A stretch of DNA of 64,000 nucleotides, taken from assembly GCA_048213135.1 (NCBI GenBank), contig PS015088.1, positions 64,180 through 128,179 on the forward strand. The letters run 5' to 3'. Under the pieces are notes generated by a model that was given only the letters and a program-made list of their open reading frames with translations, was not told the origin of the DNA and made no database searches. The stretch's first letter is position 1, and every line of letters starts with the position of its first letter. This DNA comes from Reclinomonas americana ATCC 50394 (Eukaryota). This document shows, one piece after another, positions 895-63,614 of the stretch. The translations under genes were made by a program, and so were the position numbers.

Positions 895-952
<58 letters not shown>

Positions 953-1094
953 TCTCTCTCGCCAGCACTCTCATCCTCTCAGTGCCAGTGGAGTCTCTCG
1001 AAGGTTTCATTCCTTCGTTCTCGTCATCCGCTTCTGTTACCCCCTTTCCTCTCCTCACTCAACTCCCTCACCCCCTCCCTTCCCCTCTTTCCAG

Positions 1095-10700: not shown

Positions 10701-11860
10701 TGGCGAATCTCCTCCTCGGCCGACGATTTTTCCTGCGCCGTCTGCTCCAGCTCCTCCTGCAGCGCCGCCAACTCAGACTTGTCGCCGGCCTGCTGCTGCT
10801 GCAGCAGACGTTGCAGCTCGGCTTGCAGATCGGCCAGTTGGCGGGCGTGCGCCTCGCGGGCGGCGTTGCCCTCGGCCACCAGGCGCTCCACTTCGGAGTC
10901 GCGGTCGGCGGTGACTTGCACGAGGCGTTCGAGGCGGGAGCGGAGTTTGATGTTGGCTTGGTCGAGTTCTTGGGATTTTTCGGTGGCCTGTGGGAGGGGA
11001 GGGAGGAAGGGGAAGGGTGGGTGGGGGAAGGGGGGAAGGGGGAAGGGGGAAGGGGGTAAGGGGGAAGGGGAAGGAGGAGTGAAGGAGGAAGGGAAATGGA
11101 GATGAAAGGGAAAGGGAGAGAAAGACGAAGGGAAACTACGGATGAGAGAAGCGGATGAAGAGAGGAAAGGCTGATAACAATAAGATCCAGAAGAGTGCGA
11201 AAGCATGCTGCCGAGTAACATGGCAACAATCATTAAACTGAGCAATGAGAGAGAGGAGGGAAGAATAAGAATGACAGCGAAAATATGCGACAGGAAGTGA
11301 GGAGCGTCAAAAGATAGCACGGAGAGATGAAGAGCGAGAAATAAGATTGTGATTGGAGAGGTAACACAACTCAAGTGGTGGCGAGTCAGTGGGGTGCCTG
11401 TGTGAGCAAGCAAGAAGGGAAAGATGAGGTGGAGAAAAGGACTGCATGTTAGTAAGTTTTGCAAGAGGAGTGGGAGAGAAAACAAGTACAGAGGAAGAGC
11501 ATGAGTGAGTAACAGTGTGGGACAGGTGATTACGGGTGAGACAGAGGCGGCAAGAATGAGAGTAAGAAAACAAGAGTGGAGAACAGCAGAGGTGAAAAAA
11601 GAGAGGGTACGGAAATAAGGAGAGGAGAGGGAAACTGACCGGACAGGACAGTGATGCAAGAGGAACACGACAAGGGGTGAGCAAGACAGAAAGACAGACA
11701 GACAGACAGAGAGACAGAGGGAGAGAAAGAGAGAGAGAGCAACAATGAAGAGTGGAAGAAGTCGGCTGGAGGGAAGAATTACCAACACGAGGGAAACCTC
11801 TGTAAATTCCAGAGAGATAGTTAAAATCGCAAGTGAAAGAGAGAGAGAGAGAGTGTGTGT

Positions 11861-11908
<48 letters not shown>

Positions 11909-20600: not shown

Positions 20601-21605
20601 GAAGAGAGACAGACTTGAGATGCAACTGAAGACAGAACGCCAGAGACCAAGTGAGAAAGACAGTGTAGAAAGAGTGTGAGGGAGACGAAGGAGACGAGGG
20701 AGAGGCGAGAGAAGTCGGAGTCGAGAGAGAAGAGCATACAACGAGACGCTGAAGGTCGTGTGAAGAAACAAATCATGCAGAGAAAGATGAAGAGTAAAAG
20801 AGAGACAACGGAGGAGGCCGAGGGAAAAGACAGACTTGGGATGCAACTGAACACAGACAGGATTCAGTGGAAGAAACGGAGAGACATTGAACGAGAAATG
20901 AAACCGAGACAGACGGGAAGTGAGATAAGATGCAACTGAGTGGAGATCCACAGAGACCAAGTGAGGAAGACAGTGGCGAGGATGGCAGATCGTGAGACAG
21001 AGGGAAGAGACAGAGTTGCGACGGAACTGGACAACACCAGAGACCGAGCGACAAAAACGAATGCACAAGAATTGAGAGACATATGCAAACAGGCACTACG
21101 CTGCCTCGTTCCACTCACCGACACAAGTGATGCAGCTCGCTGGCACACAGAACAAAGTCTGGAGTGCACAAATCCTGGTCCAGAAAATGAAGTCATTCAA
21201 TGCGAACACACACACGCACAGAGAGAGAGAGAGAGAGCATGAGTGTGTGCGACAGAGAGAGCATGAGTGTGTCTGTGTGTATGAGAGAAAGAAGAGCGAG
21301 TGGACACTAACCATGCACACTGGACACTTGTATTCTTCCGCCAATGCCCGCGACTCTTGCACGACTTGTTCCATCCACAATCGTGGTGGATGCACATCCT
21401 CACCTGCTGCCTCTGATGGCTGGCGACGATTCACAGCGCGCACCACGCGGAACTCATACTGTTCCTCAGAGTCAGCAAGTCGCAAGATGTGTTGCTCGAG
21501 AACGATCTCGCTGGCACAGTCGGTGATAGGGGGAGCGGGTGGAAGAGGATGAGGAGCGGAGGCTGATCCACTGCCTTTGCCGCTGTTTGCGTCCTCGAAA
21601 CCCAT
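17690..21605 (-). CDS. Variant RING + TRAF-type zinc fingers + coiled coil + TLDc protein, paralogue A
   Basis: ATG 21605 (MGFEDA). Spliced RING-like CPVCM|DLCTPDFVLCASELHHLC|REHVTAAGSDLCGDG. Zinc fingers CDRCGQQMTLDRTAEHAWSGC, CPLGCGMQLALNEMVEHSRTGC, CPRGC...QRHL and CRGNELGCEWHGVVGEREEHERVC. E/R-rich coil. TLDc LTLLFKASRDGYSAHAFHQRCDDR|...IKSSKGRVCGGYTPVPW...DPSCSSFLFS...GPIFGGG...DYEVYLVE, stop 17690. Confidence 0.85.
20387..20960. repeat. Intronic tandem repeat, ~222-bp period, about 2.5 copies
   Basis: cagacttg(g/a)gatgcaactgaa starts at 20387, 20610 and 20831; the first two copies are near-identical over their length. Confidence 0.85.
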
Positions 21606-21712
21606 TCGCGGCCAGGTGTACGACGGAACAGAGTTTTGCGTCCTTCGCCTAAGCGGCGACGTTGACGACGAGTGGCGAGAAGACAAAAGCAGGCTGTAAC
21701 TTCATTATTCAT

Positions 21713-23342
21713 TTACTCCACGAGAAACACTTCGTAGTCTGCTACTTTGAAAAGCTTCGACCCGACGAACGTCGTGTCATCGCACGCTCCACCGTCGGCG
21801 CTCTGGTACGAATACGGGTTGCCGCCGTCACTGTTGCTGTTGCTGTTGCAGTTGTCGGTCAAGAAAAGAGCGCCTGAGGATCCTCCGAATGTCGGTCCAT
21901 TGGCAGAGTTGTGCTGAACGGCAGACTGTTTCTGATCGGCCTTTAGCGCGAAGCGTCGCGCACTTGCACCACTCCACGATGCGGAGAACAGGAAGGTGGT
22001 GCCTGACGGATCGGCGACATAAACTCCTCCCAACGTGCCAGCCTGCCACGAGATACGTGTGTACCCGCCGCACACTCGTCCTGTCGACGACTTGACCACC
22101 GTCAGAGTCGCTCTGCGCGCCACCACTCGTTAACAAGTCACCGAGAAGTCTCCCCCTCTTCACTCACTCACCCTCGATTGTCACATCGCTTATGGAACGT
22201 GGCTGCTGAAAACCCATCTCGACTGCCCTTGAACAACAGCGTCAACTTGGGCACACTTCCACCACCACCTCGCGCTTGCTGCACCCACTGCAGCACCACC
22301 CGTCCATCCGCCGCACTCAGCAGATCGCTGTCAATCTTCCTCTCCGCTCGCTCGCGCTCCTCTCGTTCCCTGGCCTCGCGCTCTCGTTCCTCCCGCTCTC
22401 TGGCCTGCCGCTCTCTCTCCTCCTGCTCCCTGGCCAGCCTTTCTCGTTTAGCCGCCTCCCGTTCCTGGATCGCTCGTTCACGCATCTCCAGTGGCTCGAG
22501 ACGAGCGAGCAGCTGCAGTACAAGAGTCGGAATGAAGGGAGAAGAACAAGTAACCGGCATTCTCATCACAGACCTCAGTAAAGCCTCTCTCGAGAGCTTC
22601 TCGCATGCGACGCTCGGATCCAAGTTGCTCAGTGCATAAAGCAAGTCGGTCATCAGTGCCTTGCCTTGCTCGTTGCTCAGCGATCAATCGCTCCTCCACA
22701 GCTTGCCTCGCCTCTCTCTCTCGAGCAAGCTGCTCCCTGCTCTCAGCCACCAACTGTGAAAGTTCACGCACTTGCATGTGAAGCTGTGGAAGCTCTCGCA
22801 CTCGATCATGCAGCTGCACGCACAATTAAGTCAGTGCAGAAACAAGAGTTTCACTTCTCATCATCCCAAAACTCACCTCACGCAGCGGTCGCTCCACTCG
22901 CAGCACATCGCACACTCGCTCATGCTCCTCCCTCTGCCCAAGGACACCCCGCCACTCACACCCCAGTTCACCACCGCGACACGCAGTGTATTGCAGTCGG
23001 CACTCCGTTTCTGTCACGAGGACACCATATCAGTGTCATGACACATGCACTCTCCTTCCAAGCACACTTACCAAGATGCCGCTGCATCTCCGCCAGTGGA
23101 CAAAGCTGCTGACATCCACGTGGACATGCTCGCATGCACCCACTCCAGCTGTGCTCCACCATCTCACTCAGTGCCATCCTCGCTCCACACCCCAGTGGAC
23201 ACTCCCGCAAGCACCCACTCCACTTATGCTCCGCAGTGCGATCGAGTGTCATCTGCTGTCCACACCTCTCGCAGGTATACGAACACTGCGATGGGCCATG
23301 TGTGCGGTAATAGTCGCCGACCGTCTGTTCAACAACAGTGAG

Positions 23343-23382
<40 letters not shown>

Positions 23383-24789
23383 CTGAGAAGGAAGACTAGA
23401 GACTGAGAATGAGAGAGAGCGAAGAGAACGAGAGAAGACACCAAGACTGAGAGGCGCAAGTGTGGTAGAGGGAGATATAAAGAGAGGATGATAGGGAGCG
23501 AAGAGAACGAGAGAAGACACCAAGAATGAGAGGACATGGGGAGAGACAGAGATGGCATGTTTGTGTGTGTGTGAGAGAGAGAGAGAACACAACACACGAC
23601 ACAAACCATGGGCGCGTGACACAATGGACATTCAATCTACTTTCATCATCTCGGCATGAGTACTCCAAAAAGAACACACACACGTGAAAGAGAAAGCAGC
23701 AACCTTCAAGTTCTCATACGTCAAGCGCAGTCGGCGCTGCACCTCATGCGCCGTGGCACGAGTCGTGACTCCATCGCCGCACAGATCCACTTCCGCGTCG
23801 GTAATATGCTCACTGGCGACGCATGCTGCTCGTCAGCGTGAACGCACGCCACAGACACGGACAGCTACCAACTCACCGACACAAGTGATGCAACTCGCTG
23901 GCGCACAACATGAATTCCGGAGCGCACAGATCCTACGTAGTTCAAGGAAACGTGAGGAAGAGAGAAGAGGGACAGAGAGGAAAGCGGGAAAAGGAGAAAC
24001 AAGAAAGCAAGATGAGGAAGAGTGTGTGAGAGAGAGGGAGGAAGAGAGACGGAAGGGAGGAGCGAGAGGAGAGAGCAAGAGTGAGAAGGAGAAGGAACAG
24101 GAAGCAGACGACAAGGATGATATGTGCGTGATACGACAGAGACGGAGAGTGTGACAGAGTGAGAGAGTGCTGTGACAGAGTGAGAGAGTGCTGCGATTGA
24201 GTGGGAGAGATAGAGAAAAGAGTGCAGTGAGAGGAGGAGAGGAGGAAGAAGAATAAGAGGCGAAACAAGGAGAGGAGGATGTGGAATACGACAGGGAAAG
24301 TGGGTGACTGAGGCAGAGAGGATGAGAGAAGCGAGAGTGTGCTGAGGTATCAGGAGAACACAAGAGTCAAGAAATGCCCTCGACGTCTCTCTTTGTCTCA
24401 AACATACTCACACCGCGCGCAAACAAGGAGAGTAACTGTCCATGCATCGGAGAAACTTTCCTGCGATGTGTGTGTGTCTCGCTCACTCACTCTCCCTCTC
24501 TCTCTCCTTCACACACACACACACACACAAGCACAAACGCGTAATGAAGAAAGCTGCACTGTTGTGACATCCAGAGAAACACAAGAGTCATGACACTCCA
24601 TTTCTCTCTTTCTTCTTCTCTCACTCTCTCTCTCACACACACACACATACACATACACACATACAAACATACACACACACACGCGCGCGCATACACACAC
24701 ACACACGAACGCACAAACGCGCAAAGAGGGAGAGCAGCAAAGTTCTGACATCAGGGGAAACACAAGAGTCATGGCGAAAACTTCATCTC

Positions 24790-24821: not shown

Positions 24822-25279
24822 ACACACACACACAAATGCGCAATTATATGCTGCACTGTTGTGACATCCGGAGAAACACAAGAGTCATGCACATATGACT
24901 CAATAATGTTTCCTCTCTCTCTCTCCTCTCCTCCCCCTTCCCCCTCCCCCTCCCCCTCTCCCTCCCCCTTCTACCTCCCCCTCACCATGCACACTGAACA
25001 CAAATACTCTCCCGCCATCGCCCTCGACTCCTCCGCGACATGCTCCATCCACGGACGCGGCGGCTGCACATCCAACAACGGTCGACGATGCACAGCGCGC
25101 ACCACACAAAACTCAAACTGTTCCTCCTCTCGCTCGCCACTCGCACACAGTCGCATCACTTGCTGCTCGAGAACAACCTCGCCGTGATCATCATCTGCAG
25201 CGGGAGGTGGTGGAGGAGGAGGAGGAGCAGCTGCGCCTGAGCCGCTGCCTCCGCCACCTTCAGCGCCCTCGAAACCCAT
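21713..25279 (-). CDS. Variant RING + TRAF-type zinc fingers + coiled coil + TLDc protein, paralogue B
   Basis: ATG 25279 (MGFEGA). CSVCM|DLCAPEFMLCASELHHLC|REHITDAEVDLCGDG...ENLK|IECPLCHAPM|TVGDYYRTHGPSQC..., with the same intron positions as paralogue A. TLDc LTLLFKGSRDGFSAATFHKRCDNR|...VKSSTGRVCGGYTRISW...GPTFGG...DYEVFLVE, stop 21713. Confidence 0.85.
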
Positions 25280-40117: not shown

Positions 40118-41249
40118 TCATGCCGAGGCGCCAAACTGGCCACACGCTCGCACAAACGCCTCCTCCTTGGCTGTGTAATCGCGCACCCACTGGTGATTCG
40201 GCACGGAGCTCTTCAGTTGTCTGCGCGCGGGAAGGGATGAGGAAGGCGAAGAGAGAGACGGGCGAGGGAGAGGAGATATGTACGCAACGCGACGTAGCGG
40301 CCAATCAATTCCTGCGGTTTTTGCAAGTGCTGCGCGCACACGGCCAGGTTGATCAGCGTTTCGGGATCGCTTGAACGCTGTGCGTACACAAGAAAGAGAG
40401 TGAGTGAGTGCCGCTCTTCGCTAGTCATCCCTTTCATCGAGATACGGACCTTGTTGAGTGCCTCCATCAGAATCTTCTCCGCCTCGGCATACTCGCCCTG
40501 TGCCATCTTGCTGAGCGCCATGCCGTTGAGCAGCAGCACCGTTTGGCCGTGCTTCTGCGCCAGCTCCTCGTACATGGAGTGCGCCTCGGAGGCGGCCTGC
40601 GAGCCGCCCTTGGCAAGAAGGATCTGCGAGAGGAGAAGGGGGTGAGGGGGGAAAAGGGGGAAGGGGGGAAGGGGGGATAAGGGGAGGGGAAAGGGAGAGG
40701 CATACAAATGCGCACCAGTACATCCACTCTCATTCTCATCAACATATACACACTCCATATCTCACGCGCGTCGTCACTCACTCTCGCTCTCTTGCACACA
40801 GGTAGACGTGCGCTCTCACTGCCTCACACGCACCCAATGGCACTCCCACACACACGCCATTGCTGAATCTCGAGGCGCCATAGTCGATTGCCCAGTCGCT
40901 GCCTTTCTTTCTTTCTTTCTCTCGATCTATCACTCCCACGTCCACGCACACACGTAGACGTGCGCTCTCGCTCTCACACACGCGCCTTCACTCCCATCAA
41001 CACATGCACTCACTGGCACTCCATAACACACACCATCTTTGACTGTGGAGTCGCCTTTCCACGCCAAGGTGCTGCCGTTCTCTCAGTCTCTCTATCTATC
41101 ACTCTCGCTCTCACGCAGACACGTAGTCGTACGCTCTCACACGCGCTTTCACACACGCGTCAACACACGCACTCACTGGCATTCCCGCACACACCCCATC
41201 ATTGACTCTTGAGGCGCCTTGGTCAACACCAGGGAGACTTCAGCATCGC

Positions 41250-41295
<46 letters not shown>

Positions 41296-41377
41296 GGCCA
41301 ATGCTGACTCAAGAGACCGCTAAAGGCGTCGCCCGGTCGTTGACTTTCTCGATATCTCTCTCACACACCCGTCCACC

Positions 41378-41415
<38 letters not shown>

Positions 41416-41850
41416 GTACCGTACTACTCCGTCCGTCGGTACCGTACGACGACGCGTCGTTCGTTTCGGTCGTCGTTCCGTCGGTCGACTACTCGTCCGT
41501 TANNNNNNNNNNNNNNNNNNNNNNNNNNNNNNNNNNNNNNNNNNNNNNNNNNNNNNNNNNNNNNNNNNNNNNNNNNNNNNNNNNNNNNNNNNNNNNNNNN
41601 NNNNNNNNNNNNNNNNNNNNNNNNNNNNNNNNNNNNNNNNNNNNNNNNNNNNNNNNNNNNNNNNNNNNNNNNNNNNNNNNNNNNNNNNNNNNNNNNNNNN
41701 NNNNNNNNNNNNNNNNNNNNNNNNNNNNNNNNNNNNNNNNNNNNNNNNNNGACGTACGTACGTACGTACGTACGACGACGACCGACGTACGTACGTACGT
41801 CGTCCGTCGTCGTTCTCTACTACTACTCTCTCTACCTACCTACCTCCACC

Positions 41851-41916
<66 letters not shown>

Positions 41917-41979
41917 GTGTGTGTGTGTGCGTGTGTCACCTACAATGTAGACGTGCGCTCTCACGACGACTCACGCTAA

Positions 41980-42010
<31 letters not shown>

Positions 42011-42847
42011 AACGCACTCACTCGCACTAACACACGCCATCGTTGACTTGTGAGGCGCTGACGCTCAGGCAGCTTTCAGGTCGTGCCATTCTCTCCCCCT
42101 CTCTCACTCACATCAACGCACTCACTCGCACTAACACACGCCATGCTGACCATGGACGGCGTTAGGTGTCGCCTCTTCTCTCTCTCTCCCCCTCCCTCCT
42201 TCTCCCTGTCCGACTCAACTTGCGCTCCAACCAACTGCGACACCACCGAATCCTCGTCCAGCGTCTTCAGCACCTGCTCCGCCAAATCCACACGGTTCAT
42301 CCGCAGATACACCTCCGCCAGCAGCGCCGCCATCTCCGGCGTGTCTCGCGTGTGCAGGTACTTGATCGCCGTGTCAAAATCTTGCTCATGGATGCAAATG
42401 ATGCCCATCATGGTCGACACCACGGCACTTCGGCCGGGAGCGAACTCCTGTGGATCCGAGGGAAGTGAGGGAAGGGAGAGGGGAGGGAAAAGAGGGAGGG
42501 AAAAGAGGGAGGGAGGAGAGGGAGGGGCAAGAGGGAGGGACAAGAGAGAGGGAAGAGATAGGGGAAGAGAAAGAGAGAGAGAGTGTGTGTGTGAGAAAGG
42601 GAATGGAAAGTACATGCGACAAGCTGACTACAGCGCGAAAATCTCTGGAAACTACTGCTCAGCGGCGCCATCGCTGTGCGATGCAATCCTGTGACCTCTT
42701 GCACTATCTTGCAGAATTCAATCAGACTTTGTTGCGCAATGACCTCTCTCACTCGTTAAGAATCTCAGTGAGCTTAGCGATGCACGCTGCGCCTCTCGTT
42801 CCATCTCGCAGTTTTCGTTTAGTCTTGGCGGTGCGATATCCTTTTTT

Positions 42848-42888: not shown

Positions 42889-44661
42889 CTCTCTCTTCTT
42901 ACTACTACTCTCTCTTCTTCTCTCTCTCTCTACTACTACTACTACGTACGTACGTACGTACGTACGTCGTCGTCCTCCGTCCTCCGACCGACCGACCGAC
43001 GACCGANNNNNNNNNNNNNNNNNNNNNNNNNNNNNNNNNNNNNNNNNNNNNNNNNNNNNNNNNNNNNNNNNNNNNNNNNNNNNNNNNNNNNNNNNNNNNN
43101 NNNNNNNNNNNNNNNNNNNNNNNNNNNNNNNNNNNNNNNNNNNNNNNNNNNNNNNNNNNNNNNNNNNNNNNNNNNNNNNNNNNNNNNNNNNNNNNNNNNN
43201 NNNNNNNNNNNNNNNNNNNNNNNNNNNNNNNNNNNNNNNNNNNNNNNNNNNNNNNNNNNNNNNNNNNNNNNNNNNNNNNNNNNNNNNNNNNNNNNNNNNN
43301 NNNNNNNNNNNNNNNNNNNNNNNNNNNNNNNNNNNNNNNNNNNNNNNNNNNNNNNNNNNNNNNNNNNNNNNNNNNNNNNNNNNNNNNNNNNNNNNNNNNN
43401 NNNNNNNNNNNNNNNNNNNNNNNNNNNNNNNNNNNNNNNNNNNNNNNNNNNNNNNNNNNNNNNNNNNNNNNNNNNNNNNNNNNNNNNNNNNNNNNNNNNN
43501 NNNNNNNNNNNNNGGGAGGGAGGGAGGGAGGGAGAGAGAAGCAAAGGGGAGGGAAAGAGAAGCAAAGGGAGAGAGAGAAGCAAAGGGAGGGAGGGGATGG
43601 GAACAGCAAAATGAGAGAGAAAGACCTCAGAGGGGACAGAAATGAGAGTGACTGCACCAACGCATCTCTCAACTTAGACAACATACAAGTACACATGCAC
43701 ACACATACCCATGCGTGTATGCGAGCGACACAGAGACAAGAAAGGGACATCATCCAGGAGAGCGCAAATTGGTTGACACGCGTCACACACACAAACGCAC
43801 ACACACACAACAACAACACTCTCCACACATACACATGATCAGCCACACACACACACAACAAGCAAGGAAACGACTGCGAAAGACTCAGAAACGCAATCGC
43901 GCGCGCAATTTCTCTCTCACACACATGCACTCTCTCTCTCTCTCTCGTGTTGCACATGTGCAGGCATGTGCATGCAGACATGACAATGACAGTGTGCGTG
44001 TGTGTGAGAGAGGAGAGGAGAGAGAGAGACGGTGTCTGTGCGTGCGTGCGTGCGTGTGTGTGTGCGAGTGTGAGAGAAAGGCAGAGTAACTCTCTTCTCT
44101 CTCCACACTCTCTCACACTCACTCACACTCACTGTGCAAGTGCGCAGGCAACCTGTGACACAGTGCATGTGCATGTGCGTGAGAGAGAGGGAGACAGAGA
44201 GACAGAGACAGACAGTGCCAGAGAGCGCGTTTCTTACCTCTCTCCTCTCTCATGCATACTCTCTCTCTCTCACACACACACTCTCCCTCTCTCACACACA
44301 CGCACCGTCTCATAGCGTACCACAGCGCAGAGCGAGAGAGTCACTCTTATCTCCTCACTCCCTACCCCTTCCCCTCCCTTCCCCCTTCTCCCCCTTCTCC
44401 CTTCTCCCCCTTCTCCCTTCCTTCCCCCTTCCCCTCCCTCCTCCTTCTCCTTCTCCCCCCACCGACCTCCCCCAACACCAAATCCAGCTGCCCGAGGCCC
44501 ACATGCGAGCGGAAGACCAGCACCGAGGCCGCCGACTCACCGCCCGCCGAGGGCGAGGCGGGAGTGCTGCTGGGCAGTGAGAGCGCGTCGTTGAGCGCCT
44601 GCGAGAAGTTGCCCACGAGAAGCTCTTCGAGAACTTCTTGAAACTCGGCGCGGTGTGTCAT
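40118..44661 (-). CDS. COPE: Coatomer subunit epsilon (COPI)
   Basis: Exons MTHRAEFQEVLEELLVGNFSQALNDA...FRSHVGLGQLDLVLGE; YLRMNRVDLAEQVLKTLDEDSVVSQL; LAKGG...YEELAQKHGQTVLLLNGMA...EAEKILMEALNK; DPETLINL; QLKSSVPNHQWVRDYTAKEEAF, stop 40118. A middle exon probably lies in the 43007-43513 gap. Confidence 0.88.
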
Positions 44662-46584: not shown

Positions 46585-49500
46585 TCAAGTCGAAAACGCC
46601 TTGTTCAACTGCTTCTCCAACGTCTTGCGCATACCCGCATTGAAGACACTGCTGGGGAAGTTGTCCTCGTTCGTCGAATCCTCACGCCACGCCTCGCACA
46701 AACTCTGCATCCGCACGACGGATTCAGGCAAGCTCTCAATTGCAACACCTCCCTCATTTCCACGCTGCCCTCACCTCCGCATCATAGATTCCCTTGCTGC
46801 GCAGATGCTGAGCCACTTGCGCGCACGTCTCCGGCTCCCACAAGTGCTGCAGGTACTGGCGAAGGAAATCTGCAAGCACACGAAAGGTCAGTACTGTTAC
46901 TTCCTCTTCTTCTCTTCCGCGTCCATCTTTTCTTCTCCTCTGTCTCCTTCATCTTCTCCTTGTTCCTTTTCTTCTCTTCCACGTCCGCCTTTTCTTCTCC
47001 TCTGTCTCCTTCATCTTCTCCTTGTTCCTTTTCTTCTTTTCCTTCTGCTTCATCTCCTTCTTCCTCTTCTTCTTCTACTTCTCCTTCTCCTTCTCCTCCT
47101 TCTCCTCCTCCCTTTTTCTGTTCTTTATTTTCTTCTTCTTCTTCTCCTTCTCCTCCTTCTCCACCTCCTCCTCCTCCTCCTCCTCTTTTTCTTCTTCTCC
47201 TCCTTCCCCTCTTTCCCCTCCTTCCCCTCCTCCCCCTCCGGATCCCCTTCTCCTCTTCCGCCTTCTCCTCTTCCCCCCTCCTCCTTCTCCTCGCCACTCA
47301 CCCGCCACCGGCACATCACCCGGCCCATTGGGATTCACCCACGCACTGACTGGCTGCGGCACCGGCACCGCAGATCCACTCCCAGAGGCCACAGACTGCG
47401 GAGAGATCACAGCGCTGGTGCTGTGGGCGCTCGAGCTGAGCGGCGAGTGTCCACTGTCATGCTCGACTTCCGAGCCGGCGGCGTAGGCTTGCTCCAGAGT
47501 CGGGAAGCGACCACTGGAGCCGAGAGCGGCGGGATTCTCTTCCATCTGCTCGGCCAGCGTCTCGAGGTTGTTGAGTGCGAGGAGGTAGGCTTCGTGAATG
47601 GCACGCAGCACCGACACCTCCACGTCGAGGTCTTGGAGTCGCTCGTCGCGGTACGTGCGGATGAAACGCACGCGCTGCACACCGTAGCCACCGTCACCCG
47701 ATGCGCACATGCGGTCGCGCATGGCAATGGTGTCGGCGTGCGCCTCGGCCAGCAACGCATTGCCGGTAAACTCGCCGCCCAGCAGGTCGACCTTGGAGAC
47801 GAGAATCATCGTTGGGATGCCATCTACAAGAAAGTGAGTGGTGAGACGATGCGCTGAACAGAACACTTCGCAGTCGACGAACCAGGTGGCAGAGCATCGC
47901 GGGCACGCGAGATAAAGGTCAGCATCTTCTCGCGGGTGGCACCGTTGCCGACATTGTCGGCCGGGATGATGAGCAGCAGGCAGTGCACCTGCATTGACAC
48001 AATGTAAGTCAACCCCAAACCTGAATGAACAGTCGGCAGAAGAGTGACATAGGGAAAGAGAACAAGAGGGTGGCTGCTGAACGCTGTGAATTCGCCTGTC
48101 GCACAAGTCTCACCTCGTCACAAACAGTTGGGTTGGGATTGAAGCACGTCGGGTCTTCGCGGCCCATGCGGCGGAAGTCCCAACCGGCTTTGGCCTTGCC
48201 TTGCACAATGTACGCAAGCTCGTCTGCACAGCACTCTGTCAACATCACAAATTGCTTCCACTTCGAGAACACAGATGGGTCTCACCGCGCTCATACAGTC
48301 CCTTTTGCCAGCCCATCATGTCCAAGAACGCCAAGTGCTGGAACCGAGGGTCGCGCAGCGCCTTGTGCACCATCAGTCGCTGCGTCAGGCTCGTGGAGGA
48401 GTCACCGGAGCAAGCCACACGTTCGCCCTGTGATGTTGTAGACCGCGAGATGAGAACGAGCTCTTACGATGCCTCTCGGGCACCAATCTCACCGGCGAGT
48501 TCAGCCCAATGCTCTTCAGGGTGTTCAGCAGCGACGTTTTGCCGGCCTTGACCTCGCCGGCCACCAAGAAATTGATGCGCAGCTTGGGGCCAAACACCTG
48601 GCGCAGATACTCCAGGCGCGTGGTGTTGGCCAGCTTTTGCAGCAGTTGCTCACGTCTGCCACGATAGGGAAGTCAGCAGACAATGAAACACAACTCACGG
48701 GTGACATACTCAACTCGTCCACTAGTCCTCCACCGGGCGCCTCGTGCTGCGCCTGTAGCAGAATGCGAGCTGCAACCTCCTTGTGGCGGCGCTGCAGCTC
48801 CTCAGCTACAGCATCGGCAATGGGCTGTTGGATGGCATCCGGGAGAGTGTCGTCCAGAGCGGCGGACAGTGCGGCAGGCAGGTCTCGCTGCACGGCCTGC
48901 GGCAATGCGCGTGCAAGGCCGTCGGCAAGTTGTCGCTGCATCGCCGGCGGCAGCTTCTGGTCTACGAGGCCATTGATCGTGTTGGGCAGCAGCTCGTTCA
49001 GCACCGGCGGCAGTGCCGCGGGCAGCGCTGCGGGGAGCACAGATTTGATGGCCTCCGGCAGGATGGTGCGCAGGGCGTCGGGGAGAACGCGATGCACAAT
49101 CTCATCCACCCGCTCGCCGAGTCGCTCCTCCAAGAAGCGCTCGAACGCACCAATGTCGACCGTGGTGTCTGCAGACGCGGAAACGGATCAGTGTTTTGAC
49201 ACGAGAAGCTGCATACGAAGAGATTTACCGATGATCTCGTGCACCTCCAGTTCCGTCCAGGCCATGTTTGCGTTGCCGCCCAGCATCCAGTACTCATTCA
49301 AACCCTGTGGGCTGTATGTTCCGCCAACATTGCTGCACGAGGGGAGTAGAGACACGTTAACAAGGATGGACAGCATGGTCCAAGTAAGTGAGACACTCAC
49401 ACGTAGACGTTGTTGTTGCTGTTGAAGTACAAATCCTACAAACATGCGACAGCATGCGCAAGGTGAGAATTTCTCCTGCTGACTGCAAACGCACGAGCTG

Positions 49501-50160
49501 GCAACTGTAGCGCAACGTGGTTGCTCCCCCAGGCACCGTAGTAGCTGTTTTGATGGTATACTGCACTCTCCTTGCTCTGGTACTGGTCAAAACGACGCTC
49601 ATCGCGCTTGCCTTGCACAATCAACTGTGCATTCAAGAAGACAGATGAGAACGAGCAACACCAATCAACGACTGCACCGAGACAGCAACTCACGGAGAAG
49701 ATGAACGCCTCCGAGTCGTAGTGGTACTGCCCGTTAGTGCCCCACTAATGGAACACACAAAATCAGATCAAATTACATTTGTACATGACGGATGGATTGA
49801 CGCAACGTGTGTGGTCTTGAAGCCACCAAGCAGGAACTGCGACCCACCACTGCCACCTCCGGCAATGGTGATGGTGTTGCGCAGGCCAGAGGCATCCGTC
49901 TTTTGATGGAATGTCGAATACGATGAACCATCTCGTGTGTACCGGTACACCAGACGCAGACGACTGATGCACACATGCACACGCAGCGAGAGGTTAGAAG
50001 AGGTAAGAAAAAAAGAAGAAGAGAGTGTGTGTTGCGAGACATGAGCGCACCACGACGAGTATCCGAGAAAGTTCTGAATGGCCGTCACATCGGCCTCAGT
50101 CAACAGAGCGCTCTCCACCACAGGCAGAATCTGGCGACGAGGACGAGATCCGCTTGCCAT
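46585..50160 (-). CDS. IFI44/IFI44L-like protein: TLDc + helical LP-repeat linker + P-loop GTPase-like domain + SAM-like tail
   Basis: ATG 50160. TLDc: RLVYRYTRDGSSYSTFHQKTD, LLGGFKTT, YDSEAFIFS, GAWGSNH|DLYF, TELEVHEI. GTPase part: REQLLQKL, INFLVAGEVKAGKTSLLNTLKSI (G1 at 48535-48558), SGDSSTSLTQR, FLDMMGW (G3), CADELAYIVQG, NPNPTVCDE|VHCLLLII, GIPTMILVSKVD (G4), TYRDE...EVSVLRAI. Tail VA|DFLRQYL...HLRSKGIYDAE|SLCE...AGMRKTLEKQL, stop 46585. GT-AG junctions that keep the frame were found throughout. Confidence 0.8.
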
Positions 50161-50396
50161 GGCTCTCACACACAAATGAGAAAATTGTGATTCCGTTTGC
50201 ATGCGACAGGACATGCATTCCCGTCTTGGTGGATATTGACAGGACTGTTTCGAAACGCGACAGAATTGCAGTGCGTCTCGTTGCCGCTGGTGGTGTGTGT
50301 TGTAGTCTGAGAGACTGTGAGTGAGAGTGCGTCTTTGAGAAGCGCGCCAACTGCCCAGCTGCAGCAGACAGGACGCAATATCCCGTTTCCTATCCA

Positions 50397-52546
50397 ATGC
50401 TCTCTGACGAGCAACAGTTGCAGCTGCTGTGCTGGATTGGCCGCGATGGGTACGCATGCACACACATGCCACTCTTCTGCACCACTGCATGCTCACTTGT
50501 GTTCCCAGGCAACGACTTCGTCTTCACGAGTTGCATTCGTCGCGGAGTGGTCGCTCGGGGTTCTCCACTGCTGAGGTGGCCAATGTGGCCGAGCGATACG
50601 CTTCCTCGTCGTTGTTTGTGGTGTTGTGGACGGCCAATCAGTCGATTGTGGGCGCATACACAACGCGTTCGTGGAAAGCCGCGCGATGTGACCCGCATGC
50701 GTTCTTGTTTGCAGTTGCGCACTCGTGTGAAAGCAGAAGCTTTTGTGAGTCTCTGACGTGGGGACTCCAGCTGGCAGTGGGCGGTCAACCAGTGGCGTGT
50801 GTGCTGGAGAATGCAGGTGTCGCGAGGCATCAAGATTATGTGTGCGGATTGGTTCGGAAGCATCCACAGGTGGACTCGAGAGTGATCAGCTTTGGCGCTG
50901 GTCCGGTGAGTGTCTACTATATGCACTGTCATGGCCGTCTCTTCCTCGCGCGTGCTGAGTGCAGTGGTGCAGGATCTCGCGTTGCAGCACGGTGTGTTGC
51001 TTGTTCCATCGCGTAGTATGTTTTCCAGTGCTGCGACGTATCAAGCACAAGACACACTGCGAGTGGTGTGGTGAGCATGCTGTGCTGTGCATCCACCACG
51101 ACTCGGCACTCAATGACACTGTTTGCGTGCCACAGCAACCCTGGCCACTCATTCGAACCCTTTGACGATCACACTAGGCGACTCGATCCCGAGCTCTTCA
51201 GCAGCACCGGCTCGCAAGTGGTGCAACTCGCAGTGTATGCCGTGGTCGCAGGTTCGTTGCACTCTCTCTTTTGTCTGCGTCGTGCTTCTAATTCTGTGCC
51301 ACAGGGGGCGAGCCACTTCGAAAACCTGCTGCGCACTCCACTGCAGCCGCACCTCCACCGTCACTGCCTGCACACCGCCTGTCTGAACTGCAGGCGTTGA
51401 GCGGGCAGAGCGACCAGTGTGTCAGTGCACTGCGGCAGCTGCCGAATGTGGATGACCTGTTGGCAAAGCTGCACACCGTGCTATGTTACCAGCAGGATTC
51501 CATCCAGAGCCTGTGCGCTGAGAACTCCGCCTTTCGCCAGCTGCATGCCGTGCCATCGCTGCTGGTGCGTCTGTCCACCTGCACTCTTGCATTGATGCCT
51601 TCTCTTGTTTTCACCACGCCAATCTCCAGCAGGTTACAGTTGGAGGCACTGGCGCAGCACCGAGCGCGACCGGAAGACCATTACCACCGCCAGCACGTCA
51701 GCCTGTTGTACAACCACCACCACCACCACCGCCTCCTCCACCTCCACCCTCGCCACCTCTCCCACCACTTCCGCCACCTGCTGAATCTGTGGACCACGTG
51801 AATCGCACTCGAGCACCCGACATGGAGTTTGCACTCGACGACGACGACAGGCATGCCGAGCGTGCCATAATGTCGCCAGTGCCGCGGATGATGTACGTTC
51901 CGCGGATTGTTGTGGTGTGCTCACAAATTGCAGAGCGTGACTTTACGTCGGCCTACTGCCTGCCCGAGGTGTGCCGAGCGTTGCAAGTTGCAGGTACGTC
52001 AGGAGACAACACAGAGAGGATTGGAGGTGGTGTGAGTGTGCTCAACACGAAGAATCGTCTCAGGTGCCTTCCGAGTGGTCTCCCTGGCCGATCGTCCTCG
52101 CCACATCGACGGTGTTTTGGTTGCTCTGCGCGTGTCGGGACGGATAGAGACTGACGAGATTCGCACCTTCTTTCGTCGGGTGCTCGGCAGTGGTGGTGGT
52201 GCGTTGCAGTCATACCGATAAGTGGCTTCTCCTTTGCAACTCATGATCGCTGTGTGGTGCAGCAGGCTCTTCGTCGTCATCATCATCATCATCGAGAGAA
52301 CCCGTGCGACAGGTGCTGTTGTCGTTCATGAATGAGCCGAGCAAGCCGTGTGACTCGGATGACGAGCTGAAGACCGGTATCCCGGCCTCGGAGCTGGCAC
52401 GCAGCGGGATTGCATGCATCGACATGCGCTTCGTGGAAAAGTTCCCCAGTCCGTCGCGCTTTGTCACAGACCGCGGATTCAACCGCCAGCAGCTGGCGAG
52501 ATTGGACGAGGCGCTGGGTGGCACGGGTGACGAGTGGAGCGAGTGA
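50397..52546 (+). CDS. Divergent TLDc protein with coiled coil, poly-Pro linker and an unassigned C-terminal alpha/beta domain
   Basis: MLSDEQQLQLLCWIG, LFVVLWTANQSIVGAYTTRSW, DPHAFLFAV, ISFGAG and QLAVYAV follow the TLDc motif order. A helical exon, a PPPPPPPP linker and RIVVVCSQ...IDGVLVALRVSGRIETDE...VLLSF...IDMRFVE follow, stop 52546. The start and some junctions are tentative. Confidence 0.62.
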
Positions 52547-59500: not shown

Positions 59501-61356
59501 TCATCGCCTGTTGATCCTCTTTGTCATCCCAACACGCGATGCTTTCCTCGCATCTCCTTTCTCGTTACCCTTCTCGCTCCTTTCCAACTGTTGCTTTTCT
59601 TGATCCTCTCTGTCATCCCAACACGCGATGCATTCCCCGCATCCCCTTCCCGTTACCCTTCTCACCCCTCTCCAACTCTTGCTATCCTTTTGCCGTCCCA
59701 ACACGCGATCCTTTCCTCACATCTCCTCTCTCGTTACCCTTCTCGCTCCTTTCCAACTGTTGCTTTTCTTGATCCTCTCTGTCGTCCGACTCTTTCCTCC
59801 CATCTCCTTCCCGTTACCCTTCTCGCTCTTCCCCAGCTCTTGCCTTTCTTGATCCTTTTTGTCGTCCCAACACGCAGTTCATTCGTCGCATCTCTTTCCC
59901 TTGTTGCTTTCTTGATCCTCTCCGTCGTCCCAACACACGATCCTTCCACATCCCCTTTGCCCTTCTCACTCTTCCCCAGCTCTTCCCTTTCTTGATCCTT
60001 TTTGTCGTCCCAACACACGATCGTTTCCTCGCATCTCTTTCCCTTGTTGCTTTCTTGATCCTATCTGTCGCCCCAACACGCGATCCTTTCCTCACATCCC
60101 TTTCCCTTTACCCTTCTCGCTCCTCTTCGGCTGTTGCTTCTCGTGATCCTTTCCTCGCGTCTCTTTCCCTTCACCCTTCTCACCCCCTCCGCTCCTCTTG
60201 CAGTTCTTTGAGCAACTGTGCACCAAGTCGAACGCATTCGTGCGGGAGGACGAGCACGACGCGCAGTACTACCACGTGGCGCCGCTGCACGTCATGTCGC
60301 GCGAACACCGAGAGCAAGCGGAGCTGACGTTGCTGGCGTTTGGTCGCGCCCTGGCCAAGTGTCTGTCGGAGGCGCACGCGGCGCTGCCGGCTCCCCTGTA
60401 CTCGGACGTGATCCTGGAGCTGCTCGGCTCGACTCCACGCGCGCGCATGTTTTGCGATCCAAATGATGTGACGGCCGACGCTGCCGAGGCGCTGCTGCGC
60501 GCACTCGAAGTGATTGTGCCGTCGGTGGCCAGGAGCTTGCGCTTCACCCTGGTGCAGTTCGAGGCCTCCATGTTGTTCTTTGACGATGTTGTACCCGAGT
60601 TTTTGCCAAGCACTGTCAGTTGCGTGCGGATAGGGAGAATGGGATTGGCATGGCGAGTGGCTCACGAGATTGCTTTGCAACACAGATGCACGTGATGGCG
60701 TCACGGAGGAGAATCGCTTGTCGTACGTTTGTGCCCGCGCTCGCACGGTGTTGCTGGGTCAGGGCCGGTTGGACGCCATCTCAATAATTAAGCGCGGAGT
60801 CCGGGATTGTCTGGCACCCGCGTTGGGCGATCAGGTGTGTGTGCGCGCGCGTCATGGAATCGTTAGTCGTGGCACTCATTTCTTCTCGAATATGCTGCAG
60901 CTGCTCAACTCCATGGGTGCCTTTGAATGGCTGCGCGCACTGCCGGCAACGCAGGAGTCTGTCGGTGCGTCCTTCTCCTTCATCGTCTCCCCTGTCCCTC
61001 TCACCACCGCATCGCTCACCGCTCGCACAGATGCCGAGGCCCTCATCGACCTGCTGCGCTTTGAGCACTTCCCTGACGCAAGCGAGGCACCCCATGTGCT
61101 GGCCCAGGCGCTGCGCGAATTCACACAAGATGAGTTGCGCCAGTTCCTCAAGTTTGTCACCAATCTGCCGGGGCTGCCGTTCGGACATCCGCGACCGGTG
61201 TTGGTGGTGGCCTCGGCGGCTGGTGTCGAAGAGCTCCCGACGGCGCACACCTGTGTGCCGCAGTTGGATCTCAGCTGGCATCACTCGTCGGCCGAGGTGC
61301 TCGGTCGTGTGCTGCGGACGGCGATTGCGCAGTGTGTTGGCTTTGGATTCGCGTAG
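53509..61356 (+). CDS. Ankyrin repeats + coiled coil + protein kinase (non-RD, DYD) + HECT E3 ubiquitin ligase fusion
   Basis: ANK: GTTPLHLAAQLDETDMI|RWLV, ERTPADVA. Coiled coil ~54964-55310. Kinase 57977-59140: WILKRY, FLREVSILRQ|VQHPNVVRL, VVHCDLNFENV, IVDYDIA, GFLAPE, DLFALGVML, DPKKRISALDALAHPFF. HECT 59329-61356: LRVSFLGEEGVDAGGLTAEFF, VTEENRLSYV, RQFLKFVT, LPTAHTC (Cys codon 61252), GFGFA stop. The true start is not resolved, and the ANK-to-kinase link crosses N gaps. Confidence 0.8.
59510..60175. repeat. Intronic degenerate minisatellite in the HECT region
   Basis: ttcttgatcct...tgtc(a/g)tcccaacacgcgat and cgttacccttctcgctc each recur several times. Confidence 0.8.
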
Positions 61357-61407
61357 TTCTCCTCTTGTGCAGTGTACACTTTGTTTTACCCCCTTGTTTA
61401 TTTCTTC

Positions 61408-63614
61408 TCATCCGGGACACCGACTGCGATACTCTTCCACCAGCTCGGCGTTGAGCGAGGGTGTGACCTTTCGCCGTGCGCTGTCAAAGTCCGCCGTGCA
61501 CTGCGCGTTGTCAACAGTGAGCATGAGTTGGAAGGGAGGTCATGGGCATTGTGTCGCACCACCACTGCCGAATTCATATCTCTCCGGAGCGCAGACATGG
61601 CCGCCTCTGTGCACAGCGCTTTGAGCTCGGCTCCCGTCATGAATTCCGTCTGCACACAACATGTCTCAGTGCACCGAGGAGAGTGATGGCGAAAAAAACG
61701 AGCGTCACACCTGCTCGGCGATCCTGGTGAGGTTCAGCCTGTCGTCGAGCGGCATGCCACGCGTGTGCACTCTCAAGATGGCGACACGAGCCTCCAGATC
61801 GGGTGGTGGCACAAACAGCAGGCGATCGAAGCGCCCGGGGCGCAACAGTGCGGCGTCCACCATCTCGGGTCGATTGGTCGCCGCCATCACCAGCACATCT
61901 CGCCGCAGCGCACCGACGCCGTCCATTTCGTTCAACAGCGCCGTGAGAATGCGGTCTCGTACGGCATCTGAGCCCCCACTTTCACCACCATCTCCACGCT
62001 TGCCGACCAGTGCATCGATTTCGTCGAGGAAAATGACGGACGGTGCGGCCAGGGCGGCCTTCTTGAACAGCTCGCGAATGTACCGCTCGGCGTCGCCGAC
62101 ATATGGCGAGTACACGGTGGCACCACTGGTGTGGAGAAAGGTGAGCGACGCAGAGGCCGCGACAGCCCGCGCCAAACTGGTCTTTGCGCAACCCGGCGGT
62201 CCGTGCAGGAGAATGCCGCGCGGTGGCGACAGACCCATGCGCTCAAACGTGTGCCGGTACCGCAGCGGCCACTGGATCGCCTGCGCCAGTGCCAGTTTCA
62301 CGTCCTCCAGGCCACCAATGTCGTCAAACGACGCCACCGGTGCCGACACGCCGACTTCGGCGGCCTCTCGATGCAGCGATGGACGCACCACCGACCGTGC
62401 ATGCTCAAAGTGCGACCGCCCGACGCGCACATTGGCGGCGGCGGCAGCGACAGCCTCTGCGTCGGCGGCCAGAAACGCGACGCGACACAACTCGGCCAGA
62501 TCCGCCCCCACGAATCCAGCGCACGACTCGGCAATCGTCACTGAAGGAAAACAATAGTGAGAGGAGACAAGGACGATGATGGAAAAGCAAGCAATCCATG
62601 CAAACCAAGATCAACATCGTCTGCCAGTCGCATGCGGGAGGTGCGCGCACGCAGGATGGCCACCTTGCCGTCGAGTGACGGTGGCGGTATCTCGATCTCG
62701 CGATCAAAACGACCGGGCCTGCGCAGAGCGGGATCCAACCGTGATGCGGCATTGGTGGCCGCCAGCACCACTACTCCCGATGATTGTTCGCCGGGCGCGT
62801 GATCGAGGTCGTCCATCAGCGTCTGCAATTGCGCGACGATGCGTGCGCCGTAATGACTGCCGACAGAGTCGCGCCGCTGACACAACGCGTCGATCTCATC
62901 CATGAAAATCACCACGGGCCGATTGCGCGATGCTATTTCGCGTGCTTCTGCAAACGCCTCACGCAACCGGCGCTCCGTCTCACCCATGGTGTCGTCGGTG
63001 ACCGACGCACAGTCGATGCACACCACATGCGCGCCGCACTCGCGCGCCACAGCACGCGCAGCACTGGTCTTGCCGACGCCTGGAGGCCCCGTGAGCAGAG
63101 CACCACGCGGTGGACGCACACCCAGTCGAGTGAACACTTCGGGGACGCGGTGCGGCAGCACCACCAGTTCGCGCAGGGAGCGGAGGACGGAGTCGAGCCC
63201 TCCAAGCAACTCTCCCTCCTCTTCCTCCTCCTCCTCTTCGTCCTTGTCATCCTCCGACAGAGGGGAAGGAGACCTCCCTGGTGACGACTGCTGCTGTAAC
63301 CGCAGCCGTGTGTTGGCGGTGACGAAAAAGAAGCGATCGGGCGGAGCACTGGCCTCGGCTGCCACCGCCGTCGAGAAGCGCACATTTGCCACATGCAGTG
63401 GAAGCACGTCGGTCGCTGCCTTATCGTCATCACCGACCGGCATCAACACTGTGACACCGACCTCCAACAGCGGAAAGCGACGCAGGAATGCTTGCACGCG
63501 GGCGGCGTCGACGGGTGATCGAGAAGAAGATGACGACGACGAAGGGCAGTGCACTGTGACGGAGCTGGCGCGGCGAGGGATGGGGCGGCCAGATGTGAGC
63601 ACGTCAATGGTGGC
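61408..63614 (-). CDS. SPATA5L1: Two-domain AAA+ ATPase, SPATA5L1/AFG2B-like (5' end outside the window)
   Basis: D1: PRGALLTGPPGVGKT, IFMDEID, LDPALRRPGRFDRE. D2: PRGILLHGPPGCAKT, YSPYVGDAE, IFLDEID, VDAALLRPGRFDR. Last exon ...KVTPSLNAELVEEYRSRCPG, stop 61408. The GVGKT/GCAKT pair fits AFG2B better than AFG2A or Cdc48 (recalled sequences). Confidence 0.8.

Follow-up and report, generated by a model that had tools for sequence, protein, structure and literature searches.

Few human genes are induced as strongly by interferon as IFI44 and IFI44L, and the biochemical mechanism of their products is not known. These animal proteins (TLDC5) consist of an N-terminal TLDc domain followed by a G domain, with a G1 motif of the form GxxxxGK[ST]; passages of the Busse et al. 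preprint and of PMC5614904 further describe a DxxG motif (G3) that precedes a hydrophobic residue, and a G4 motif of the [T/S]KxD type. The TLDc domain of IFI44 shows 15% identity to other TLDc proteins (PMC5614904). The need of nucleotide binding by IFI44 and IFI44L is disputed in passages of the Busse et al. preprint, which report that deletion of the G1 region did not abolish the antiviral effect of human IFI44, so that nucleotide dependence is uncertain even within the IFI44 family. Our search of the literature, which covered main texts and mostly journals without subscription, retrieved no paper on IFI44 outside animals, and a search with IFI44 motif strings likewise returned no relevant paper.

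In the mammalian proteins OXR1, NCOA7, TBC1D24, TLDC1/mEAK7 and TLDC2 the TLDc domain is C-terminal; they have this domain in common with the gene described here but lack a G domain. The legend to Figure 1 of PMC5614904 names the domains of TLDc proteins, their order not being given there, and Oxr1 and Ncoa7 are presented as proteins that may bind the V-ATPase in parts of PMC8294626.

The gene described here lies on the minus strand of a 64,000-nt stretch of DNA (the window), where it extends from 50160 to 46585, with its ATG at 50160 and a TGA at 46587–46585 (Table 1). The earlier note on this DNA had spliced it by hand into a gene for a TLDc domain followed by a GTPase, and an independent reconstruction from the sequence arrived at the same gene: 14 exons and 13 introns, every one of the latter with GT...AG borders (13/13), whose exon phases are compatible with a single frame of 2,289 nt (762 codons plus the stop). 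Twelve introns measure 50–125 nt and the remaining one, which is GA-rich, 432 nt; reading through from the upstream frame meets a stop in nine of the 13. The GC content at codon positions 1, 2 and 3 is 0.64, 0.44 and 0.74, against 0.50 in the introns, and in every one of the 14 exons GC3 is higher than GC2, with a margin of 0.02 in exon 2, 0.10 in exon 1 and at least 0.19 in the other twelve. Two placements are possible for intron 7, either 48714–48656 (GTTGAG..CAG) or 48698–48649 (GTGAGT..GAG), and the choice alters only three to six residues of the spacer. If intron 12 is left unspliced, the frame continues for 75 further codons, rich in Gly, Arg, Lys and Glu, and then reaches a stop. Exons 13 and 14 display coding periodicity (GC3 of 0.75–0.78) and, since exon 13 contains no Met, the best reading is that both are 3′ exons belonging to this same gene.

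Table 1. Coordinates, in the window, of the exons, protein domains and motifs of the TLDc-GTPase gene and of the adjoining intergenic gap.
Feature	Position	Strand	Basis
Exon 1	50160-50051	-	Splicing and translation
Exon 2	49963-49807	-	Splicing and translation
Exon 3	49744-49694	-	Splicing and translation
Exon 4	49624-49517	-	Splicing and translation
Exon 5	49435-49401	-	Splicing and translation
Exon 6	49332-49229	-	Splicing and translation
Exon 7, spacer	49168-48715	-	Splicing and translation
Exon 8, holds G1	48655-48493	-	Splicing and translation
Exon 9, holds G3	48427-48286	-	Splicing and translation
Exon 10	48235-48114	-	Splicing and translation
Exon 11	47988-47883	-	Splicing and translation
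Exon 12, holds G4	47823-47302	-	Splicing and translation
Exon 13	46869-46775	-	Splicing and translation
Exon 14	46704-46585	-	Splicing and translation
Intron 12, 432 nt, GA-rich low complexity	46870-47301	-	Splice model, read-through
TLDc domain, exons 1-6, aa ~10-188	49229-50160	-	Pfam TLD matches, paralogue similarity
P-loop G domain, exons 8-11 and first ~85 codons of exon 12, aa ~341-600	47577-48655	-	Motifs
G1 (Walker A), GEVKAGKT, aa 373-380	48535-48558	-	Translation
G3, DMMG, aa 430-433, then Trp rather than Gln	48311-48322	-	Translation
Exon 10 segment, ~40 aa between G3 and the next strand (DELAYIVQG ... FNPNP ... CDE)	48114-48235	-	Translation
G4, SKVD, aa 527-530	47786-47797	-	Translation
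Ser/Pro/Ala/Val-rich stretch, rest of exon 12, aa ~601-691	47302-47576	-	Composition
C-terminal module, ~70 aa, exons 13-14	46585-46869	-	Coding periodicity
Gap of 236 bp between the ATGs of the TLDc-GTPase gene and the divergent TLDc-like gene	50161-50396	.	Coordinates

Judged from splice-site logic alone, a single transcript would carry both the TLDc and the G domain. Hand-splicing might instead have merged two genes, one for the TLDc domain (exons 1–6) and another for the GTPase (exons 7/8–14), in which case no fused protein would exist. Read-through of intron 6 stops after 13 codons, making a TLDc-only product possible; there is also an internal Met within exon 7, and the donor of intron 6 (GTAAAT) is not the commonest form in the gene. 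However, starting at its CAG acceptor, exon 7 is an open frame with a strong coding periodicity (GC1/2/3 of 0.83/0.41/0.74), and it is in phase with exons 6 and 8 across introns whose lengths, 60 and 59 nt, are typical. Nor does the region contain low-complexity DNA of the intergenic type that separates other genes in the window, and the fused layout is one that defines a known family. We consider a pair of separate genes quite improbable.

The TLDc domain is present at the N-terminus of the product, as seen from exon-level Pfam matches, each of them under the cut-off, and from an alignment with a paralogue. When exon 1, intron 1 and exon 2 are read through in frame, the product matches the Pfam TLD profile (PF07534) with an E-value of 8.2e-4 (19.8 bits, profile positions 24–60), as does exon 2 by itself with an E-value of 0.0014; every single TLD match falls below the Pfam cut-off of 24.5 bits because the exons were scanned one by one. 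Additionally, residues 15–63 and 81–163 match two exons of a paralogue situated in the window at 22335–21803 (tblastn, E-value 4.5e-5), and these two exons in turn match positions 26–52 and 67–139 of the TLD profile, so that the similarity to TLD-bearing paralogues of the window is collinear. A Pfam scan of the read-through of exons 3–4 found nothing, and a PDB sequence search with the exon 1–2 read-through returned antibody noise only. The domain looks more canonical here than the very divergent TLDc of IFI44. Upstream of the gene, the gap that separates it from the divergent TLDc-like gene is a candidate bidirectional promoter.

Between the TLDc and the G domains, exon 7 encodes a spacer of around 150 aa that is rich in Ala, Leu and Pro (16, 16 and 9%, respectively) and contains repeated motifs of the LPxxL type. 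Single-sequence AlphaFold2 models it as two long helices (residues 5–59 and 74–141 of the exon product; mean pLDDT of 71.4), and in Pfam it matched only DUF445, weakly and below the cut-off (E-value 0.0017). About 160 residues extend past the G domain. The first part of them, the rest of exon 12, is probably disordered, with residues 620–692 comprising 22% Ser and 12% each of Pro, Ala and Val. It is followed by the module encoded by exons 13 and 14, for which Pfam gave nothing above noise.

The motifs of the G domain follow the canonical order G1, G3 and G4, C-terminal to the TLDc domain and within one gene model; the gene model, this domain order and the intact state of the nucleotide-binding motifs are direct observations. 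All seven motif strings quoted in the earlier note were found in the spliced product: exon 8 encodes INFLVAGEVKAGKT; exon 9, GDSSTSLT and DMMG; exon 10, DELAYIVQG; and exon 12, VSKVD and TYRDE...VLRAI, with PTVCDE|VHC spanning the junction of exons 10 and 11. Their counterparts in IFI44 would be those that the note assigned to them, and the exon 10 segment would, on the note's reading, correspond to an insert specific to IFI44. This exon had no match in Pfam, NCBIfam, PADLOC or PDB.

The gene thus has the domain order of IFI44 and IFI44L, and its G1, its G3 with the ensuing hydrophobic residue and its G4 conform to the motifs given above for these proteins. It also differs from them in several respects. 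The G1 motif is located at residues 373–380, after the helical spacer, versus residues 193–201 in human IFI44 according to a passage of the Busse et al. preprint, and the disordered stretch and terminal module past the G domain are additional with respect to human IFI44. Moreover, exon 12 is too dissimilar to IFI44 for detection with phmmer: the search with this exon (107 aa) against 1.84 billion representatives produced three matches at E ≤ 0.001, to repeat proteins (TPR, HCBP and cadherin), which we discarded as spurious, and hence any similarity to animal IFI44 lies below that reporting threshold. Word-seeded searches with exon 12 among longer proteins retrieved no relative at E ≤ 0.001 from 3,933 candidates and none at E ≤ 10 from 706 candidates, and of 144 pattern matches in a scan of JGI metagenomes none was confirmed. 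Searching PDB by sequence yielded one noise match for exon 12 (E-value 1.3) and none for exon 9, and the single-sequence AlphaFold2 prediction for exon 12 (107 aa) was all-helical and not usable (mean pLDDT of 63.6; of five models, four stayed under 47).

A feature search of the ESM Atlas with exon 12 gave top scores of 0.92, 0.91 and 0.91, with 175–182 of 256 features in common, although according to the tool itself 4–10% of shuffled proteins reach a score of 0.9. The first two are unnamed clusters of hypothetical proteins, and the third is a cluster of 279 members designated "Interferon-induced protein 44-like family protein" (0.91; 175/256 features). None of the 30 Atlas matches of exon 12 carries a Pfam GTPase family; exon 9 gave no usable match in the same resource. 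It is unlikely that a cluster of the very family named beforehand would arise by chance among 7.7 million Atlas clusters. This match is the single positive test of an IFI44 kinship of the G domain, and we treat it as a lead only. From the proposal that the gene has the full IFI44/IFI44L architecture we can retain the layout, TLDc and then G domain, whereas kinship with IFI44 is suggested by the Atlas match of exon 12 and finds no echo in the alignment searches with the same exon.

The G domain was also compared with other GTPase families, using scans run exon by exon, which lowers their sensitivity. Exon 8 matched Pfam IIGP (PF05049) with an E-value of 0.073 (profile positions 34–60 of 375) and Septin (PF00735) with an E-value of 0.12 (positions 4–26 of 280), as well as IRG proteins in PDB (E-values 0.12–1.8), in all cases over the P-loop only; the P-loop also matched TIGR00231 (small_GTP) with an E-value of 0.021, at 14.6 bits versus a cut-off of 42.5. 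Exons 9–12 did not match IIGP at E ≤ 1, AIG1 (PF04548) was listed for none of the exons at E ≤ 1, and there was no match of any exon to Ras (PF00071), Roc or Arf at that same level. Beyond the P-loop, no exon matched the IIGP, Septin, AIG1, Ras, Dynamin or MMR_HSR1 models, nor did NCBIfam and PADLOC show anything past the P-loop for exons 7–12. In these exon-wise scans, membership in the IRG, septin, AIG1/GIMAP or Ras families thus finds no support further than the P-loop.

These comparisons bear on a different reading, in which the fusion is real but unites a TLDc domain, independently, with a GTPase that is either an orphan or some other member of TRAFAC (IRG-like, paraseptin-like or lineage-specific), the likeness to IFI44 being due to a convergent architecture and generic G-motifs. 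It would fit with the fact that the P-loop matches are the sole family-level signals with E-values, and that the exon with the P-loop and the helix ahead of it find their best, albeit non-significant, matches in IRG/IIGP proteins (Irga6, Irgb10 and TGTP2). Likewise, IFI44 was recovered by no alignment-based search, and the Atlas was empty for exon 9 and headed by hypothetical proteins for exon 12. Conversely, IRGs have no TLDc domain, the matches to IRG, septin and small GTPases end at the P-loop, with exons 9–12 matching none of them, and even a threshold of E ≤ 1 brings up neither AIG1 nor Ras. Also, the Atlas list for exon 12 includes the named IFI44-like cluster but none that carries IIGP, AIG1 or Septin; the closest cluster with a septin reaches only 0.76. 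On balance, we consider an independent fusion of this kind unlikely.

The affinity of the host was examined through a neighboring gene for an AFG2-like ATPase. Among the 120 best-scoring database proteins for this ATPase, 12 had a legible organism name, corresponding to a jakobid (59% identity), two fungi (54 and 51%), a charophyte (48%) and eight archaea, and none to an animal. The jakobid protein is the best listed relative and is collinear over both AAA domains; the eukaryotic relatives are four among the 120 listed matches, too few for a tree. These results weakly favor the description of the host, in the earlier note, as an apparently non-animal eukaryote.

If the scaffold were from an animal or an animal contaminant, the gene would be an ordinary invertebrate IFI44-like gene. 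The Rfam search of the whole window had no matches and so provided no marker RNA, and IFI44 homologs of cnidarians are immune-expressed or upregulated, as stated in parts of PMC13319465. Against this origin, none of the 12 organism-named relatives of the ATPase, of the 120 best, is from an animal, and the jakobid protein is the collinear one; besides, the lack of a relative of exon 12 at E ≤ 0.001 among the 1.84 billion representatives would be unusual for a sampled animal group. To our knowledge, animals do not typically have introns of 50–125 nt at 55% GC, and we count these against an animal scaffold. We give little credence to an animal source; in contrast to animal IFI44 and IFI44L, the host is probably a non-animal organism, with no implication of an interferon system.

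Our preferred explanation, with a probability of roughly 0.6, is that this is an intron-rich nuclear gene, probably of a non-animal eukaryote, for a cytosolic protein of 762 aa that would comprise, from its N- to its C-terminus, a complete TLDc domain, the helical spacer of ~150 aa, a G domain of the IFI44/IFI44L type, a disordered Ser/Pro-rich stretch and a small helical module. With an intact P-loop (GEVKAGKT), a switch-II motif (DMMG) that has a hydrophobic residue after it, and SKVD as the guanine-specificity motif, the protein is predicted from its sequence to bind guanine nucleotide and may act as a nucleotide-dependent switch or scaffold, in which the TLDc domain would serve as the effector or bind the partner. 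It would be a protist counterpart, related but divergent, of animal IFI44/IFI44L and, as such, plausibly a stress- or infection-responsive protein.

We propose, tentatively and at less than even odds, that the complete IFI44 architecture is not an animal invention and is present in a protist lineage that is distant and possibly related to discobids; the module would be early-eukaryotic or transferred, long before interferon. Here it would be found within an expansion of TLDc genes, with a putative shared promoter region of 236 bp pairing it head-to-head to another TLDc gene, and both the expansion and the head-to-head pair suggest a co-regulated, TLDc-based stress or defense unit. Should the gene be a bona fide member of this family in a non-animal eukaryote, the two-domain TLDc-GTPase module would predate, or be independent of, the interferon system. 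It would also offer a wider comparative set for the identification of the module's invariant residues and its partners, as well as a simpler organism in which to study it.

The TLDc-GTPase gene could be spliced in silico into 14 exons and 13 introns, with GT...AG borders in all 13 introns, donors GTGAGT/GTGAGA (7), GTGAGG, GTTGCG (2), GTTGAG, GTTCGT, GTGCGC and GTAAAT, and acceptors CAG or TAG. Twelve of the introns measure 50–125 nt and the remaining one, of 432 nt, is GA-rich low-complexity DNA; intron phases agree throughout, yielding a single frame of 762 codons from an ATG at 50160 to a TGA at 46587–46585. These two codons coincide exactly with the gene limits assigned in an earlier note made from the sequence alone, and the seven motif strings quoted there all occur in the spliced product, including PTVCDE/VHC, which appears only once exons 10 and 11 are joined. 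The observation of a TLDc domain and a GTPase-like domain in one gene thus holds at the DNA level. The predicted transcript structure is accompanied by a coding GC1/GC2/GC3 of 0.64/0.44/0.74 versus an intron GC of 0.50; GC3 exceeds GC2 in every exon (14/14), also in exon 7, which encodes the spacer, and in exons 13 and 14, with a narrow margin in exons 1 and 2, and read-through of the upstream frame meets a stop in nine of the 13 introns. Intron 7 can be placed at 48714–48656 or at 48698–48649, altering few spacer residues. Because exon 13 lacks a Met and shows good coding periodicity, it is probably part of the gene, and the best reading of the 3′ end is that exons 13–14 belong to it; alternatively, intron 12 would be retained, and the frame would then run into a tail rich in Gly, Arg, Lys and Glu that stops after 75 codons.

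Features of the TLDc-GTPase gene, its product and its surroundings (nucleotide positions in the window; aa, residues of the product)
Feature	Position	Strand	Basis or remarks
BtpA-family protein	361–1722	+	Pfam
Tandem TLDc paralogues	17882–19881, 21803–23636	-	Zinc-finger region (weak zf_UBZ match), Arg/Glu-rich coiled coil, TLDc
Coatomer epsilon subunit, at least two exons	40213–42627	-	Pfam
TLDc-GTPase gene	46585–50160	-	All junctions located, then spliced in silico
TLDc domain	aa ~10–188, exons 1–6	-	Exon-level Pfam and paralogue similarity
Spacer	aa 189–340, exon 7	-	Ala/Leu/Pro-rich, repeated LPxxL-like motifs
G domain	aa ~341–600, exons 8–12	-	G1, G3 and G4 motifs
G1	GEVKAGKT, aa 373–380	-	Motif
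Switch-I candidate	GDSSTSLT	-	Motif, Thr-rich
G3	DMMG, aa 430–433, then Trp	-	Motif
G4	SKVD, aa 527–530	-	Motif
Ser/Pro/Ala/Val-rich stretch	aa ~601–691	-	Composition
C-terminal module	aa 692–762, exons 13–14	-	Helical-looking
Head-to-head TLDc-like gene	50397–50449, 50509–50905, probably further exons downstream	+	Pfam TLD E 0.045, below cut-off
HECT ubiquitin ligase, C-terminal part	60634–61356	+	Pfam
AFG2-type double-AAA ATPase gene	61372–63200	-	Used as probe for relatives

Domain scans of the product were run exon by exon on contiguous DNA, which reduces their sensitivity. Exon 2 alone matches Pfam TLD (E 0.0014), and exons 1 and 2 read in frame through intron 1 match profile positions 24–60 with an E of 8.2e-4 and 19.8 bits, below the cut-off of 24.5 bits. 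Additionally, residues 15–63 and 81–163 resemble two exons of the paralogue at 22335–21803 (joint E 4.5e-5), which match Pfam TLD positions 26–52 and 67–139; combined, these matches cover, in the correct order, the greater part of the profile's 170 positions. The exon 7 spacer forms two long helices in a single-sequence AlphaFold2 model (mean pLDDT 71), and its sole family signal in Pfam is a sub-threshold match to DUF445. Downstream of it, the Walker A, DxxG and (S)KxD motifs are intact and have G-domain spacing, the long helical spacer joining them to the TLDc domain. The G1–G3 distance matches that of classical G domains at 57 residues, and the G3–G4 distance, of 97 residues, is long; G3 is followed by a segment of about 40 aa from exon 10, and the strand VHCLLLII precedes G4. 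The Ser/Pro/Ala/Val-rich stretch after the G domain is probably disordered, and the C-terminal module has no family match in Pfam.

Among the G-domain exons, only exon 8, with the P-loop, was recognised by family profiles: in Pfam it retrieved IIGP (E 0.073), Septin (E 0.12) and further SRPRB, EF-Tu and Dynamin_N, in NCBIfam small_GTP with 14.6 bits (cut-off 42.5), and in PDB the IRG proteins (E 0.12–1.8). No Pfam, NCBIfam or PADLOC model matched exons 9, 10, 11 or 12, no meaningful PDB chain matched exons 9 and 12, and AIG1, Ras, Roc, Arf and MMR_HSR1 were absent from the exon-wise scans even at E ≤ 1. With exons 9–12 matchless and these families absent, the G domain does not, at exon-level sensitivity, show any of the Pfam-modelled GTPase families that had been put forward as alternatives to an IFI44-type domain.

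Exon 12 is the longest of the G-domain exons and served as the query for relatives. A word-seeded search found none at E ≤ 0.001, or even at E ≤ 10, and neither did a metagenome scan; an exhaustive phmmer search of 1.84 billion representatives returned three matches, all repeat proteins by Pfam. These empty searches indicate that the host proteome and its close relatives are absent from the collections searched and that any likeness of this exon to animal IFI44 lies below single-sequence detection. The single positive outcome came from the ESM Atlas feature search, in which exon 12 reached a recognition value of 2347, above the tool's mark of 2300; its best three clusters, all eukaryotic, scored 0.92, 0.91 and 0.91 (182, 176 and 175 of 256 features), and by the tool's own warning 0.9 is attained by 4–10% of shuffled proteins. 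The third of them, with 279 members, bears the name 'Interferon-induced protein 44-like family protein'; that the family named beforehand should turn up among 7.7 million clusters is nonetheless unlikely to be a coincidence. None of the 30 Atlas matches to exon 12 carried a Pfam GTPase family, and the nearest septin-bearing cluster scored 0.76; exon 9 gave no usable Atlas match. The exon 12 look-alike (0.91) is an indirect lead to the kinship with IFI44 proposed in the earlier note; the alignment searches with that exon gave no relative and the Atlas nothing usable for exon 9. We estimate a probability of about 0.6–0.7 that this is a true IFI44-type domain. The finer motif equivalences between this G domain and IFI44 listed in that note are putative.

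The product has the same layout as IFI44/IFI44L. According to the Busse et al. preprint, these proteins have a G1 of the form GxxxxGKS and a G3 of the form DxxG followed by a hydrophobic residue, with a complete G4 in IFI44L only, and such published G1, G3 and G4 features are common to the window protein. The differences are of position and length: G1 lies at 193–201 in human IFI44 (Busse et al. preprint) and at aa 373 here, where there is a spacer of 150 aa, and the window protein has a long C-terminal extension. According to that preprint, human IFI44 without the G1 region still restricts RSV, so that a role for nucleotide binding is open even in IFI44.

IFI44 and IFI44L come from animals, whereas the host of the window protein is probably not an animal. 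The 50–125 nt introns, a GC content of 55%, intergenic and intronic DNA made mostly of CT-, CA- and GA-rich microsatellites, and assembly gaps across the window, seen as N runs that differ in length (e.g., 3900–3930, 12780–13180 and 42990–43500) and interrupt some genes, fit a draft protist assembly; no marker RNA was found in the whole 64 kb. Among the best 120 matches to the AFG2-type ATPase, listed by total score over a capped set of candidates, 12 had a legible organism name, comprising four eukaryotes, eight archaeal CDC48-type proteins and no animals. Of the relatives listed, the best is a protein of the jakobid Seculamonas ecuadoriensis, whose identity in the D2 exon is 59%; the other named eukaryotes are two fungi (54% and 51%) and one charophyte (48%). 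Given how the list was ranked and capped, this speaks weakly against an animal host and gives a hint of a discobid affinity. The S. ecuadoriensis protein is collinear with both AAA domains (E 2.4e-145) and, since the CDC48 N-domain families are missing from its precomputed Pfam list, is the AFG2-type orthologue. Elsewhere in the window, an open frame of 1172 codons (8657–12175, minus strand) consists in its second half of a coiled coil rich in Ala, Glu and Gln, built of repeat units that are almost the same in sequence and roughly 33 residues long.

The window holds four TLDc genes and no second G domain of the TLDc-GTPase type. The start codons of the TLDc-GTPase gene (50160) and of the divergent TLDc-like gene (50397) are 236 bp apart, and both may form a co-regulated head-to-head pair. 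The two tandem paralogues share 57–78% protein identity. Alternating with them are two copies of a duplicated ORF (21096–21701 and 24983–25192, both minus strand), 56% identical, with a CxxC-type motif at the end and no Pfam match.

The product would most likely work as a switch or scaffold that depends on guanine nucleotide, with its TLDc domain engaging a partner; some TLDc proteins, such as Oxr1 and Ncoa7, may bind the V-ATPase, according to a review (PMC8294626). A role in defence or stress is speculative and drawn by analogy, and the clustering of TLDc genes and the candidate shared promoter region are suggestive only in this respect. Cnidarian homologues of IFI44 are described as genes of the antiviral programme in PMC13319465, and we found no report of IFI44 outside animals in the literature searched. 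If the kinship is true, the new element would be that the entire two-domain architecture of TLDc plus G domain occurs outside animals.
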